Shown here: positions 35,119 to 44,205 of the stretch, one piece after another
Position numbering within the stretch: the first letter of the stretch is position 1
How the letters are laid out: the number at the start of each line of letters is the position of its first letter
NCBI GenBank assembly: GCA_964409225.1
Contig: CAYPCM010000004.1
Coordinates: 1-58,407, forward strand
Origin: an uncultured Candidatus Saccharibacteria bacterium
Lineage (GTDB): Bacteria; Patescibacteriota; Minisyncoccia; JACPXH01
DNA: 58,407 nt
Direction of reading: 5' to 3'
The notes under the pieces: generated by a model
The model's database searches: none
What the model saw: only the letters and a program-made list of their open reading frames with translations
Told to the model about the DNA's origin: nothing
Made by a program: the position numbers and the translations under genes

Positions 35119-35225
35119 ACGCGCCCGTTAGAAAACTTACCGTGAGCGCTTTATCTCAAGAAGTATTCCCAAGTTTGCGTACGGCCGAGTAACTCATTAC
35201 GCAGCAGGTTTTCTAACGGGCGCGT
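35119..35225. repeat. CCCGTTAGAAA/TTTCTAACGGG inverted-repeat element overlapping the tRNA 5' end
   Basis: ACGCGCCCGTTAGAAAAC (35119-35136) pairs with GTTTTCTAACGGGCGCGT (35208-35225). Confidence 0.8.
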
Positions 35226-35293
35226 AGCTCAATTGGCAGAGCAGGCGACTTATACTCGCTCGGTTCTAGGTTCGAGTCCTAGCGCGCCCACCA
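35218..35293 (+). tRNA. tRNA-Ile(TAT)
   Basis: Acceptor GGGCGCG/CGCGCCC, anticodon arm GGCGA-CTTATAC-TCGCT, ACCA end. Confidence 0.9.
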
Positions 35294-35341
35294 CATAGTG
35301 CGCCCTGCCCCAACGGGGCAGGGCGCATTGCTCTGGGCCGA

Positions 35342-35422
35342 CTACTTCTTGGCGCCTTGACCGCTACCGCCTCCGCCGCCAGGAACTGCCGGGCCCTTCT
35401 TCGGCTTCTTCTTCGTGGCCAT
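35342..35422 (-). CDS. Candidate 26-aa Lys/Gly-rich peptide
   Basis: MATKKKPKKGPAVPGGGGGSGQGAKK*, GGGAGGGGGTGA SD, hairpin at 35299-35328 downstream. Confidence 0.4.
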   Translation of the reverse strand: MATKKKPKKGPAVPGGGGGSGQGAKK

Positions 35423-35666
35423 CCTGCTCACCCCCTCCCTATGCCAGCGCTCATCGGTAGTAACGCCCGCGGGCAACGGCCGAAAAGACATGGCCTGCGG
35501 CCGCCGCGGAACCCACGCCCGCACCATGTGCTTGCCCGCTCCCCTCTGACTGCAGTATACGAAAACGCAGCGCGTGGTTCAAACACAATTGCCAATAAAG
35601 CATACTACTCGTACAATACTGACGAACATGGTCGTGCGCGTCGTTGGTTCACCCCGCTCGATATAT

Positions 35667-35741
35667 GCGCCCTTAGCTCAGTGGCAGAGCGCTTGCATGA
35701 CACGCAAGAGGCCGTAGGTTCAATCCCTACAGGGCGCACCA
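35667..35741 (+). tRNA. tRNA-Val(GAC)
   Basis: CTTGC-ATGACAC-GCAAG, ACCA end. Confidence 0.93.
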
Positions 35742-35742
35742 A

Positions 35743-36462
35743 ATGAAACTCGCCATCATTGCCGATACTCCTGACTACATCGTGGTAGATAAGCCAACTG
35801 ACGTTTTGACCCATCCCACAAGCCGCCACGAACCCGACACGCTCATCGCGGCTGTCTTGAACCGCTACCCGGAGATTTCCTCGGTCGGGGATTCGCCGAA
35901 CCGGCCCGGGTTGGTGCACCGGCTCGATCGCGACACGTCCGGCGTACTCATCGTCGCGCGAACGCAGCCGACGTTCGAACTGCTCAAACGGCTTTTCGCA
36001 ACCAGACAAATAAAGAAAACATACCTCGCGCTCGTCCACGGCATTGTGCGAAACGACAAGGGCTCTGTTGATTTGGCCATCGGACGCTCAACGCGAGATT
36101 CGGTGCGGCGCGTAACCGCGCTCAGTCGTGCAGCCAAAGACCTCAAGTCCGCCCGGACGCGCTTCCGGGTTCTCCAGCGCCTCACCGCCGGCAAAACCGA
36201 TTTCACGCTTCTCGAAATCTCGCCGGAAACCGGCCGCACCCATCAAATTCGGGTGCATCTCGCTCACCTTGGCCATCCCGTGGCCGGCGACGAGCTGTAC
36301 CGGCAAAAACGCGCTATCCCGCCCCCGGGGTTGAAGCGTCTGTTTCTGCACGCGCTCCGGCTTGAAATCCCATTCCCAGAGGGCAAAAAAACTTTTGAGT
36401 CCCCACTACCACCTGAATTGCAGGCGACGCTCTCAGGCCTTGAACCAAAACTGGAATCATGA
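35743..36462 (+). CDS. RluA/RluD-family pseudouridine synthase
   Basis: [24 protein letters not shown]. Confidence 0.95.
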
Positions 36463-36478
36463 TATCCTCAAAAGCTGT

Positions 36479-36832
36479 ATGGCCCCCATTATCCTAGCGG
36501 AACAGCAAACCCGAACCGACCTGCCCGACCTCAAACCCGGGGATACGGTTCGGGTCTGGCAGAAAATCAGAGAAGGCGACAAAGAACGTCTGCAGGCGTT
36601 CGAGGGCGTGCTCATTGCCCGTCGTCACGGCCGCGGCGTTTCAGCCACGTTCACGGTGCGCCGCGTGGTATCGGGCATAGGCGTCGAACGCATATTTGCG
36701 CTGCACTCGCCCGCAATCGACAAAATCGAACTCCTTAAACGTACAAAGGTCCGCCGGGCCAAACTCACGTATCTCCGCCAGCGCTCGGGCAAAGCCGCGC
36801 GGATGCGCGAGGCAATCGCCTCGACACCCTAA
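36479..36832 (+). CDS. rplS: 50S ribosomal protein L19
   Basis: [33 protein letters not shown]. Confidence 0.97.
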
Positions 36833-36844
36833 ATTCGAAATAGT

Positions 36845-41416: not shown

Positions 41417-41452
41417 AATTTTTTCTTTTGGAGATTTGATCTTTTATATTCG

Positions 41453-41524
41453 AGGCCTGGGTGGGACTCGAACCCACGTATAAGGGTTTTGCAGACCCTC
41501 GCCTTACCTCTTGGCTACCAGGCC
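41453..41524 (-). tRNA. tRNA-Cys(GCA)
   Basis: AGGGT-CTGCAAA-ACCCT, U73. Confidence 0.95.
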
Positions 41525-41543
41525 ATCAGGGGTCAACAGCGAA

Positions 41544-43058
41544 TCAGGGTTGCTCGAAAAATCGCAGCGTATCGCCCGGCTGGATCGCGTTCGTACCCAC
41601 AATCAAAAGCCCGCACTCTTTGCCTTCTGCCACTTCGTCAACCGGCGCCTTGTTTTGTTGCAATTCAGCAACTCTACCCTCGGCCACCGCTTCCCCGCCC
41701 CGCAGCGCTTCCACCGTGCTACCCCGTCTCGCCACTCCCTGCGTTACTTTGCCGCCCACCACTTGCCGACTAGCTTCTTTACGGAACAAGGCCAGCACCG
41801 TAAGTTCGCCGAGTTCCGTGCGAGTTGGAACGCCCGCGCCGACAAGCTCCAAAACCAATTCTCTAACTCTCTCGATAAGGTTATAAATCACGTCAAACGT
41901 CTCCACCGGCACGCGCATTTGGCTGGCCAAGGCCTTGGCGCGCGGCTCCACCTTCACCCGAAACCCGACTAGGCGCGCCCGATCCGCTGCTGCCATTTTG
42001 ATGTCGTTTTCCGCAACATTACCCACGCCGCTGCGCAAAACTACCACGCTCACGCCGCCTTCGGGAGCAATTGAAGAGATGCTCGCAACAATGGCCTCGC
42101 GGCTGCCCTCCACGTCGGCCTTCACAATAAACAGGAGGGTCTGACCCTCCTCGTTTTGGGGCAGCTCGAAGTCCGTTGCCTCGCGCACGCCTTGCGAGTC
42201 CTGCCACAGTCGCGCTCGCTCTTCGGCTTCTCGCCTGGACGAAACCACCGCAAACTTTTCGCCCAGGGGTGCGACGGCATTAAGACCAAGAGCGAGTACC
42301 GGCGTTGAAGGGCCAGCTGCGCGCACCGCCGCGCCCTCCGCCTCTGTAAGCGCCCGCACCGCGCCGTAAGTATTCCCGGCAACCACCATGTCGCCTATTT
42401 CCAGCGCGCCTGTCTGCACCAAAAGTGTCGCCACCGGCCCTCGCTGCCCATCCAGCTTGGCTTCTATAACCACGCCGCTGGTCGGAGCGCTGGCCAAAGA
42501 AGCCGCGCCAATCCCCTCCACTTCAGCTACCAACGAAATGAGTTCAAGCAACTCTGGCATGCCCTGACCGGTTTTGGCAGACACCTCCACCGACGGCACC
42601 TTCCCGCCCCAGGCCTCAACTTGAATGCCGTTTTCGGAAAGTTCCTTTTTGACGCGCTCCGAGTTTGCTTCGGGCTTATCTACCTTGTTTATTGCCACAA
42701 TAAATGGAATCTCGGCTGCGGCAATGTGCTTCGCTGCTTCCAGCGTTTGGGGCTTAACCCCCTCGTCAGCCGCCACGACCAGCACTGCCAAATCCGCCAC
42801 CTTAGCGCCTCGCGCGCGAATGGCCGAAAACGCTTCGTGGCCGGGTGTGTCGAGGAACGTGATGGTTTTGCCCGCCGCGTCCCGCACCTGATAGGCGCCG
42901 ATGTGTTGCGTGATGCCGCCGGACTCGCGCTCCACGACATTGGTCTTGCGAACCGCGTCAAGCAACGCGGTTTTCCCATGATCAATGTGCCCCATGACCA
43001 CCACCACTGGCGGCCGGGTTTGAGATGCGATTTTTGTTGAGGTCTGCATTGGCGTCAT
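41544..43058 (-). CDS. infB: Translation initiation factor IF-2 (short form)
   Basis: [37 protein letters not shown]; starts almost at the G domain. Confidence 0.96.
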
Positions 43059-43067
43059 ACGTGCGGG

Positions 43068-43154
43068 CGGTGGGGGCGAGATTCGAACTCGCGAAGGGAT
43101 TGCTCCCTTAACGGTTTTCGAGACCGCTGCCTTCAACCGCTCAGCCACCCCACC
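43068..43154 (-). tRNA. tRNA-Ser(CGA)
   Basis: GCGGT-CTCGAAA-ACCGT, long variable arm, G73. Confidence 0.95.
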
Positions 43155-43235
43155 CCTACACAACAAAGCTCAATAAATCTAGCATTTTTGAGCAAAAAAC
43201 GCAATTCAGGGGACCCGCGAGGGTCCCCTGACTGG

Positions 43236-43871
43236 CTAGGATGTCCTTTTCTTGCGCGTCTTCGCTGACACCTTGAGTGGGAGCGGTTTGATGGTCCACG
43301 ACACGCCCTCCACTCTCGTGCCCTCCGGCAACGTAATCTTGCCGGTATGGGCGAGCTCGCGAACCCGGTCCGTATCGGCAAGGAGGTCCACGTCGGTTTC
43401 AAGAAACCGACCTACCTCTTTTTCCGGAACGCCGTGGCTCACGAGAAATTCTCGGAGCGCCTTCGTGAGATCCTCGGCGCTCACCTCTTGGCGCATCGGA
43501 ATCGTAACAGAAGCGGTAAACTGCTCGCTCACGAGATTGGGGTAGAGTGCTCCGAGAGCGGCTTTCAACAACTCCGCATCCCAGCTCTCTTCGACCTCGC
43601 GGACGATGAGGACCTGAAAATCATCCCTCTCTGACCGGACGCCGCGGATAGCGGCCCCATGCGCTTCGGTAATCGCGATAATCCGCGCCCGCAGCTCGTC
43701 CTGACGCTTCTTCAACCTTTGGGCGAGCGCGGCGTTCACGACGTAACGACGCGCAAGATCATAAAGCCGCCTCACTGTTTCGCGCGACACCTCCACCGCC
43801 ATGTCCGACACCCGGAGCTCTACCCCCTCGATGTGTGTCCCCTGCGATACCAGTTCCGTTCCCATAGCCAT
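43236..43871 (-). CDS. Hypothetical protein (N-terminal coiled coil)
   Basis: GGGAGG SD; terminator-like hairpin at about 43206-43232. Confidence 0.65.
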   Translation of the reverse strand: MAMGTELVSQGTHIEGVELRVSDMAVEVSRETVRRLYDLARRYVVNAALAQRLKKRQDELRARIIAITEAHGAAIRGVRSERDDFQVLIVREVEESWDAELLKAALGALYPNLVSEQFTASVTIPMRQEVSAEDLTKALREFLVSHGVPEKEVGRFLETDVDLLADTDRVRELAHTGKITLPEGTRVEGVSWTIKPLPLKVSAKTRKKRTS

Positions 43872-43932
43872 GGCATCCTCCCATTGTGCGAAAGAACAAA
43901 CCAAGTCGCCGCCTGGCGACCCCCCACTCCTG

Positions 43933-44205
43933 TGGGCGTTGCTGGGCTCGAACCAGCGACCTTTGCAATGCCTGCCCCGTTACAAATGGCTCCGTGCGCG
44001 CAGTAGGTTTCGAACCTACGACCTTTCGCATGTGAAGCGAACGCTCTACCACTGAGCTATGCGCGCAAAAATTTGTAACGGGGTGAAATGCAACGCTCTT
44101 CCGGGGCTGGCCGGTCGCCTTGCGACATCGGCCAGCCCGTCTCGGCGGCTCGAACACAAGCAGTTGTGTTCTCGCATCGCCTCGACCCAGCTGAGCTAAA
44201 CGCCC
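43933..44205 (-). tRNA. Doubly interrupted outer tRNA (Ala-like if inserts are removed) enclosing tRNA-Val(CAC)
   Basis: GGGCGTT-TA-GCTC-AGCTGG[about 86 nt]AA-GAGC-G-TTGCA-TT[114 nt]GGCAT-TGCAA-AGGTC-GCTGG-TTCGAGC-CCAGC-AACGCCC-A; all four stems fully paired. Confidence 0.8.
43995..44066 (-). tRNA. tRNA-Val(CAC), nested
   Basis: Acceptor GCGCGCA/TGCGCGC, TTCGC-TTCACAT-GCGAA. Confidence 0.93.

Follow-up and report, generated by a model that had tools for sequence, protein, structure and literature searches.

A probable family of miniature hairpin-ended mobile elements with a GIY-YIG nuclease gene or tRNA genes in a Candidatus Saccharibacteria genome

Introduction

The stretch of DNA considered here, called the window and analysed over its whole length of 58,407 nt, is contig CAYPCM010000004.1 of an uncultured Candidatus Saccharibacteria bacterium (assembly GCA_964409225.1). 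It is contig C4 of a genome, hereafter G000, of 883 kb in 60 contigs that is 98% complete. The window contains pairs of inverted repeats (IRs) that enclose unique spacers, complete tRNA genes or a small gene for a GIY-YIG nuclease, and a preliminary description had read them as a structure-recognised capture and insertion system. The repeats are probably the terminal IRs of very small mobile DNA elements that can form hairpins and make up one family. Their shell occurs in three states: about 100 nt long and without a gene, 263–285 bp long with the gene for a GIY-YIG nuclease (about 86 residues) as its only gene, and about 90–115 nt long with a complete tRNA gene.

Inverted-repeat pairs in the window

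All six IR pairs named in the preliminary description lie where it placed them, and the lone arm that it reported near 37631, TCTAACGGGG, occupies 37630–37639, 10 nt past tRNA-Val(TAC). Perfect IRs of at least 13 bp with a span of up to 330 nt occur six times in the window, which is well above background frequency (mean 0.34, maximum 3 in 100 first-order Markov simulations). The features concerned are the following.

35119..35225, no strand assigned: family member with arms ACGCGCCCGTTAGAAAAC, ends CCCGTTAGAAAAC ... GTTTTCTAACGGG and a 71-nt unique interior
37630..37643, plus strand: lone right arm TCTAACGGGG followed by CAAG, 3' of tRNA-Val(TAC) at 37548–37620
38236..38417, plus strand: tRNA-Phe relic with acceptor stem GCCTGGG/CCCAGGC
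39636..39710, no strand assigned: family member with decayed right arm TCTAATGTGG, flanked by TTGA (39632–39635) and TTGA (39711–39714)
39807..39905, no strand assigned: variant-end element CCCCATACCAAAT ... ATTTGGTACGGGG, flanked by TTTG (39803–39806) and TTTG (39906–39909)
43934..44205, minus strand: tRNA-Val(CAC) relic with acceptor stem GGGCGTT/AACGCCC
52040..52331, minus strand: GIY-YIG element of 292 bp with 13-bp ends ACCCCGTGAAATA and an open reading frame (ORF) at 52038–52307 of 89 aa

The arms are perfect in four pairs, at 35119–35225 (18 bp) and at 38281/38389, 43975/44083 and 52040/52331 (13 bp each). The right arm of the 39635/39711 pair, TCTAATGTGG, has two mismatches, and the 39807/39905 pair matches at 12 of 13 positions. 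The motif CCC(C)GTTA(G/C)A is common to the pairs at 35119, 39635 and 43975 and to the lone arm. Since TTTG flanks it on both sides, the 39807 pair is regarded as a variant-end member of the family; its right arm ATTTGGTACGGGG, followed by TGAA, is also found 3' of tRNA-Ile(TAT) in G001, a genome of the same genus as G000. The outer C/G run described earlier as shared by all pairs is indeed shared by the family pairs but not by the stalk of the Phe pair, CCCAGCACCTTTT, which has only CCC in common with the family and was rejected as a member. Of ten Phe genes examined, two have a stalk. Because the Phe cassettes of relatives carry other stalks, the 38281 pair is taken as the same kind of object from a different sequence family.

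The right end of the 35119–35225 element overlaps the 5' end of tRNA-Ile(TAT) (35218–35293). CGCG stands on either side of the element, and its left flank, GGACGCG, is similar to the tRNA-Ile 5' end, GGGCGCG. The element may thus have landed in the acceptor stem of tRNA-Ile, with its terminal GGG rebuilding the 5' end of the tRNA. No clean empty site for this hairpin was found in G001, where the corresponding locus is a different one, rich in relics. As for the lone arm at 37630, its sequence with CAAGCCGAAG equals the right end of a complete Val(TAC) cassette in genome G396 (locus L071), where the matching end and flank (TCTAACGGGGCAAGCCGAG) lie 3' of the cassette. By this comparison, the arm at 37630..37643 is the remnant of a tRNA-Val cassette that has lost its left arm.

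Perfect IRs also occur at 55500–55734, with 16-bp arms that are each palindromic (AGGGTC.GACCCT) and about 200 nt apart, and at 52220–52319, with 15-bp arms, inside the nuclease element.

Insertion into DNA and target duplication

The hairpin elements move as DNA, and their insertion duplicates a 4-bp target, usually TNNA. In G001, positions 39326–39436 of contig C12 consist of an element between two copies of TCAA, and the syntenic site on contig C11 of G000 has a single TCAA and no element. Perfect 4-bp direct repeats surround 25 of 37 distinct tRNA-free copies from G000, G001 and 30 loci of relatives, and four more copies match at three of the four positions. None of the 37 had such repeats when the flanks were shifted by 8 nt as a control. 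The duplications are mostly of the TNNA type (TCAA seven times, TTGA four times, TAAA and TGAA three times each, plus others) and comprise 11 different tetranucleotides. A 4-bp duplication is also present at 42 of 87 loci from the cross-phylum matches described below, and a perfect one at 8 of the 14 mid-size copies of 263–285 bp. The family therefore has the features of an element of the insertion sequence or miniature inverted-repeat transposable element (MITE) type: terminal IRs shared by dispersed copies, a duplication of fixed length in the tRNA-free copies and, in one clean case, an orthologous empty site. Comparison of G000 copies on contigs C9, C1 and C11 with G001 yielded no further empty site, as the loci differ by kilobases, and another candidate aligned poorly.

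Spread of the family and constraint on its arms

With up to one mismatch allowed per arm, G000 holds 18 hairpin elements with family ends, which are 27–110 nt and mostly 95–110 nt long. Across 401 sampled genomes of the class, the pattern CCCCGTTAGA-N65-95-TCTAACGGGG is present in 94, and the reversed pattern, used as a control, in none. At least 120 such stretches were found in species-representative genomes. According to 80 titles among the matches listed, they include metagenome-assembled genomes (MAGs) of Omnitrophota, Planctomycetota, Deltaproteobacteria, Saccharibacteria, Spirochaetia and Thermodesulfovibrionia, together with many Patescibacteria. The interiors of different subfamilies bear no relationship to each other, and in Rfam, neither the hairpins nor the nested inserts match a family. 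The claim that C/G-run ends mark a genuine family thus holds for dispersed copies, both within G000 and across the class.

The co-variation of inner stem bases, also claimed beforehand, is seen in 62 distinct elements picked by exact 10-mers. Arm positions 11–13 each show four Watson–Crick pair types and stay paired in 57–60 of the 62; position 14 is paired in 38, and pairing is at background level from position 15 on. Over positions 11–15, the Watson–Crick fraction is 0.755, compared with 0.41 for shuffled partners (maximum 0.51 in 500). Arms range in length from 10 to 19 bp. The ends are fixed in sequence over 10 bp and constrained in complementarity over about 3 bp more, which suggests that they are recognised in a folded or paired form.

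On contig C9 of G000, two copies of a 113-nt subfamily (11154–11265 and 11528–11641) lie in opposite orientation, each with a TCAA duplication, and bracket tRNA-His and tRNA-Arg(TCT).

The GIY-YIG nuclease form

The minus-strand ORF at 52038–52307 of the window encodes a single-domain GIY-YIG protein (PF01541, E 1.7e-14, residues 7–73 of 89). It is the sole gene content of the 52040–52331 element, and its last four codons are encoded by the end repeat. The best solved relatives of the protein are the UPF0213 proteins 1zg2 (E 7e-5) and 1ywl (E 3e-4), and NCBIfam gave no match. Of 201 class genomes, 147 have homologues, frequently more than one each, and such proteins occur in over 1200 protein clusters. 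At the 30 best homologue loci, an IR of at least 9 bp brackets the ORF in 20. Nine of these have ACCC(C/T)GT-type ends, three of them exactly CCCCGTTAGA, and the others have quite different ones; end sequences differ between nuclease lineages.

In the same 401 class genomes, the pattern CCCCGTTAGA-N235-265-TCTAACGGGG was matched in 13 and yielded 14 elements of 263–285 bp. An intact GIY-YIG ORF of 79–86 aa, 36–56% identical to the window nuclease, is found in ten of them, and four of these ten have perfect duplications. Residues of the catalytic GIY-YIG type are invariant over 11 aligned proteins. No other protein gene was seen within the shell at the spacings searched (N65-95, N235-265 and N320-350). 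The window element at 52040–52331 is evidently a variant of this mid-size form. The association of IR pairs with GIY-YIG genes, put forward for checking in the preliminary description, is borne out by the 20 bracketed loci among the 30 best and by the ten intact ORFs among the 14 mid-size elements. That description had listed the nuclease as one cargo among several; the gene does lie in the shell, but it is more likely the driver than a cargo.

The nuclease family also keeps company with tRNA genes in another manner. Among the 30 nuclease genes of relatives, seven have a tRNA no more than about 100 nt away. At three inspected loci, a tRNA 5' fragment with a GC-rich hairpin in its D region is followed by the nuclease gene and then by an intact copy of the same tRNA. 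These tRNA-fragment loci are a second association of the family with tRNA genes, one without ends.

tRNA genes nested in probable relic tRNA genes

Two tRNA genes of the window each enclose another one. In the tRNA-Phe relic, a 13-bp stalk (38281–38293/38377–38389) takes the place of the entire anticodon arm and encloses an intact tRNA-Phe(GAA) at 38297–38369. The D loop of the relic holds a 20-nt palindrome, CCTGCCTGCCGGCAGGCAGG, at 38256–38275, and its T loop is two bases short. In G001, the syntenic gene, also for tRNA-Phe(GAA), shares this acceptor stem and contains a group I intron; one Phe gene has therefore been invaded in two ways within one genus. The intron (locus L025, G001 contig C16, minus strand, locus positions 316–605) lies in the anticodon loop and matches RF00028 with 56.3 bits.

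The D loop of the tRNA-Val(CAC) relic contains about 90 nt of inserted sequence. Directly after CAC, the anticodon loop of the relic is interrupted by the stalk CCCCGTTACAAAT (44083–44071/43987–43975), which encloses an intact tRNA-Val(CAC) at 43994–44066. An uninterrupted Val(CAC) orthologue with the same acceptor and anticodon stems occurs in genome G038. The nest recurs in G001 at 98% identity, but there the D loop has no insert and an extra T precedes CAC; the T-run before CAC is TT in G038, TTT in G000 and TTTT in G001. In both nests of the window, inner and outer tRNA have the same identity, and the outer copies are damaged. As the orthologues verify, the outer Phe and Val(CAC) genes are by all appearances relics of resident genes. 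Four groundwater DNA runs from one study contain the region; their short contigs end at tRNAs and neither bridge nor contradict the nested loci.

Some other features stand close to this subject. The palindrome of the Phe relic belongs to a theme of D-region hairpins in tRNA fragments beside nuclease genes. In other families of the class, CCTGCCTGCCGGCAGGCAGG or a near-identical hairpin occupies the same D-loop position in dead 5' halves of tRNA-Lys, tRNA-Val and tRNA-Ile and is also found within the T arm of a dead tRNA-Ser (loci L028, L037, L038 and L107). The hairpin has 25 hits in G038 and 19 each in G041 and G060, and a single copy in G000. At 41170–41330 of the window (minus strand), an intact tRNA-Leu(TAA) is directly followed by a second copy of its own T arm and 3' end, GGAATCCCACCCCGGGCACCA, whose T loop is interrupted by hairpins of about 110 nt; here, too, a relic seems to adjoin a live gene. 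The tRNA-Thr(CGT) called by ARAGORN at 40855–40928 (minus strand) lies inside a long ORF, receives no support from Rfam at E ≤10 and is probably false. Between the Phe relic and tRNA-Gly, a 221-aa ORF (38831–39496) shows weak helix-turn-helix matches (E about 1e-3, below cut-offs) and, by eye, a LAGLIDADG-like stretch, and could be another selfish nuclease gene.

tRNA-bearing copies in related genomes

The interchangeable cargo proposed for the elements is a fact of the family: unrelated spacers, the GIY-YIG gene and tRNAs of at least seven identities are found inside family-type shells. In relatives, family ends enclose genes for tRNA-Gly, tRNA-Pro, tRNA-Val, tRNA-Ala, tRNA-Thr, tRNA-Ser and tRNA-Arg. 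Such copies make up 5 of 42 distinct elements from G000, G001 and the loci of relatives and 4 of 91 cross-phylum loci, and there are further cases. In nine cases from relatives, the flanks are tRNA halves whose surviving loop or stems, judged by eye, fit the identity of the inner tRNA. When the element is removed in silico, five of the nine yield an ARAGORN call for a tRNA body that spans the junction, on the strand of the inner gene. The inner anticodon is among the calls in three of these five, the anticodon call varying with trimming. The tRNA-bearing copies usually have TTCA as one flank and C(A/G)(A/G)G as the other, whichever way the tRNA points, and even a Spirochaetia MAG shows this signature.

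Most copies had been said to touch or neighbour tRNA genes. This is true of the tRNA-rich window but not of the genome as a whole: of the 18 elements of G000, 4 have a tRNA within 300 nt, a significant excess over the 0.59 expected from random placement (P about 0.003, 2000 trials). The link to tRNAs is real and concerns a minority of copies.

Proposed mechanism and alternative explanations

The probable reading of the repeats as ends of a mobile DNA family leads to a mechanism in which the nuclease itself may move the elements. It would recognise the paired or foldable ends and drive their movement, and the gene-less hairpins of about 100 nt would be non-autonomous derivatives of the nuclease-only element, since nuclease-only copies share their ends and the transposase families searched were not found. 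The tRNA-bearing copies, which lie in the anticodon region of a disrupted gene for the same tRNA, would enter by a different route, as they have TTCA...C(A/G)(A/G)G flanks instead of a 4-bp duplication. The inner gene would now supply the tRNA, so that the cassette could not be lost, and the outer gene would decay and collect hairpin inserts. In its boldest version, the 86-residue GIY-YIG nuclease would by itself mobilise the element, which, at 263–285 bp including its ends, would be the smallest known DNA transposon that is self-contained. This transposon would need ends that pair with each other, would have identical termini across distant phyla, and its shell would repeatedly take up tRNA genes and replace an essential host copy in place. 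This version is put forward tentatively and is, on balance, rather doubtful.

Several observations weigh against this account. Perfect duplications are missing at 12 of the 37 tRNA-free copies and at six of the ten nuclease-bearing copies with exact ends, and the window element 52040–52331 is flanked by TTTA and TGGA. To our knowledge, no GIY-YIG nuclease performs strand transfer. GIY-YIG homing and restriction enzymes are known to leave 3' overhangs of 1–2 nt and not a 4-nt stagger, so that the duplication would require host repair or another activity. None of the 15 tRNA-bearing copies has the 4-bp duplication. In the structure-recognised capture and insertion system of the preliminary description, insertion is confirmed by the empty site and the 4-bp duplications, and capture is not, because no such step was seen. 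An intermediate with the nuclease and a tRNA together between the ends was not found in the 401 genomes at N320-350, the spacing searched; the one genome that matched has a tRNA-Arg hairpin with a tandem duplication. At locus L155 (contig C32 of G291, locus positions 1500–1870), a family-end tRNA-Arg(TCT) cassette is followed by three tandem units of about 123 nt that repeat its right end. The outer Val relic is 98% identical in G000 and G001, compared with about 90% (by eye) for an adjacent small ORF and 66–93% for longer syntenic blocks, which could mean that the outer gene is still under selection. Finally, ARAGORN finds no tRNA-Lys(UUU), tRNA-Asn(GUU) or tRNA-Gly(UCC) in the 98%-complete G000, and since this set is incomplete, undetected interrupted tRNAs may exist. 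The ARAGORN set also has no further CAU tRNAs, and a tRNA on contig C6 (29684–29751; locus L054, 85–153), identified by Rfam (42.4 bits) and a stem scan, was missed by it.

A conventional transposase acting in trans could instead move the shell, with the GIY-YIG gene as a passenger, perhaps a selfish or protective nuclease. A 4-bp duplication and short terminal repeats are, as is generally known, typical of DDE transposition, and the cargo is interchangeable. Three of the 14 mid-size elements have no ORF longer than 53 aa and no BLASTP match to the window nuclease, and another (L147, longest ORF 18 aa) looks frameshifted by eye. Copies of 0.7–2 kb, a size beyond the searched spacings, might encode such a transposase. 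It is nevertheless unlikely, given that the GIY-YIG gene is the sole protein gene seen in the shell (10 of 14) and that nuclease lineages differ in their ends, as expected if protein and ends co-evolve. Two transposase families were searched, and neither DDE_Tnp_1 (PF01609, G000 only) nor DDE_Tnp_1_4 (PF13701, five hairpin-rich genomes) was found. A third possibility is that the stalks act in RNA, as processing helices or intron-like inserts, and that the outer tRNAs function once the hairpin and inner tRNA are removed. The pairing of the arms through varying positions, the fold of the nested RNAs as a cloverleaf within a cloverleaf (z about −5.5), the 98% conservation of the outer Val gene between two species of the genus and the several expected tRNAs that went undetected all agree with this. 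Most copies, however, are intergenic and flanked by target duplications, and one empty site is known. By eye, the stalks are perfect helices that lack 3-nt bulges, and no bulge-helix-bulge motif is visible; the inserts match no Rfam family. The outer Phe gene lacks an anticodon loop and has a shortened T loop, and G001 lacks the D-loop insert (about 90 nt) that the outer Val gene carries in G000. Because the inner tRNA always has the identity of the outer one, a spliced outer gene would be redundant, and a role in RNA is very improbable. A tRNA intron, of the group I or bulge-helix-bulge type, was rejected as well: Rfam gave no intron match at E ≤10 between 34500 and 45000, while the Phe intron of G001 was detected, and ARAGORN with introns allowed found no intron-bearing tRNA.

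An integron-like system, in which a tyrosine recombinase acts on folded sites, can hardly be credited. GTTAGA(N) and (N)TCTAAC seem to resemble the attC core sites GTTRRRY and RYYYAAC; cargo lies between two boxes in the manner of gene cassettes, and the genome has one tyrosine recombinase gene (PF00589). This single recombinase is a lone gene of 310–346 aa, the size of Xer, the insertions are dispersed and form no arrays, and the duplications vary over 11 tetranucleotides, unlike the products of site-specific recombination. At the one site with an empty counterpart, moreover, the duplication was seen to accompany insertion. A free-standing homing endonuclease gene was rejected, as the tRNA-free copies, to which this point applies rather than to tRNA-bearing or tRNA-adjacent forms, do not share a single conserved site: beyond TNNA, their sites are unrelated, and they carry duplications. 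VIPR guide RNAs were also rejected; as far as the available text on them goes, they are GGY/NN tandem repeats, unlike the hairpins.

Comparison with known systems

Bacterial MITEs and mobile insertion cassettes include Correia/NEMIS, RUP, ERIC and MIC231. They resemble the present family in their size of about 100 bp, terminal IRs, duplication of fixed length, many copies, hairpin-forming transcripts and occasional passenger genes. The present family differs in that the only candidate for an autonomous partner is the GIY-YIG unit of 263–285 bp and not a transposase, that its ends are identical across phyla, and that a subset carries a complete tRNA inside a matching tRNA gene. Integrative elements that use tRNA genes are kilobases long, encode an integrase, restore the displaced 3' part of the gene and leave a partial direct repeat. 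In both cases, a tRNA gene is the target and its function is kept by DNA borne on the element; here, a cassette of about 100 bp supplies a complete tRNA, and the two halves of the former gene remain on either side of it.

The Ssn nucleases are small GIY-YIG proteins that cut single-stranded DNA beside multi-copy hairpin repeats flanking their genes (Chenal et al. 2025, PMC11893778). The available text points out that NTS-ssnA-NTS is built exactly like an insertion sequence (Chenal et al. 2025, PMC11893778). Common to both systems is a small single-domain GIY-YIG protein tied to a multi-copy hairpin repeat, often on both sides of the gene; the comparison concerns architecture and the single domain. 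Another small GIY-YIG gene of G000, at about 2055–2279 of contig C34 (locus L087), is flanked by the NTS-type palindromes ATTCCGGG...CCCGGAAT and lies amid ATTCCGGGTCGAGCCCGGAAT-type palindromes that resemble the dRS3/NTS repeats of Ssn nucleases. The two systems differ in that the flanks of the present elements pair with each other as inverted ends enclosing the gene, whereas the Ssn repeat, as described there, is a local palindrome. Duplications, empty sites, derivatives without a gene and cargo in the form of tRNAs are not among the things described in the available text of PMC11893778, which never uses the terms 'target site', 'MITE' or 'tRNA'.

SegB is a free-standing GIY-YIG homing endonuclease of the tRNA gene cluster of phage T4 and promotes the inheritance of itself and of neighbouring tRNA genes (PMC2330249). 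The likeness, on the part of this source available, is a nuclease gene amid tRNA genes, as at the seven of 30 relatives' loci within about 100 nt of a tRNA, some of them by a duplicated tRNA 5' fragment. Homing copies DNA into one conserved site by recombination; here, the sites are mostly unrelated TNNA sequences and are duplicated. The rRNA genes of bacteria of the candidate phyla radiation (CPR) contain non-intron insertions with GIY-YIG genes and many uncharacterised inserts of less than 200 bp without ORFs (PMC11270868). These two kinds of insert fit the two main forms found here; the available text of PMC11270868 mentions neither inverted ends nor duplications nor a cargo of tRNAs. In the literature, no description was found of a nuclease-only element with duplications, of miniature derivatives of one, or of tRNA genes nested in relics.

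Implications

If the nuclease moves the element, this would be a new enzymatic route to transposition by a minimal mobile unit, with a hairpin-end requirement that looks programmable. It would also explain the short uncharacterised inserts in CPR rRNA genes (PMC11270868, as far as its available text describes them) and the tRNA genes that standard finders miss or miscall in CPR genomes. The tRNA-bearing form would be a selfish element that is secured by replacing an essential gene and not by poisoning the cell. Annotation pipelines should expect live tRNA genes nested in dead ones.

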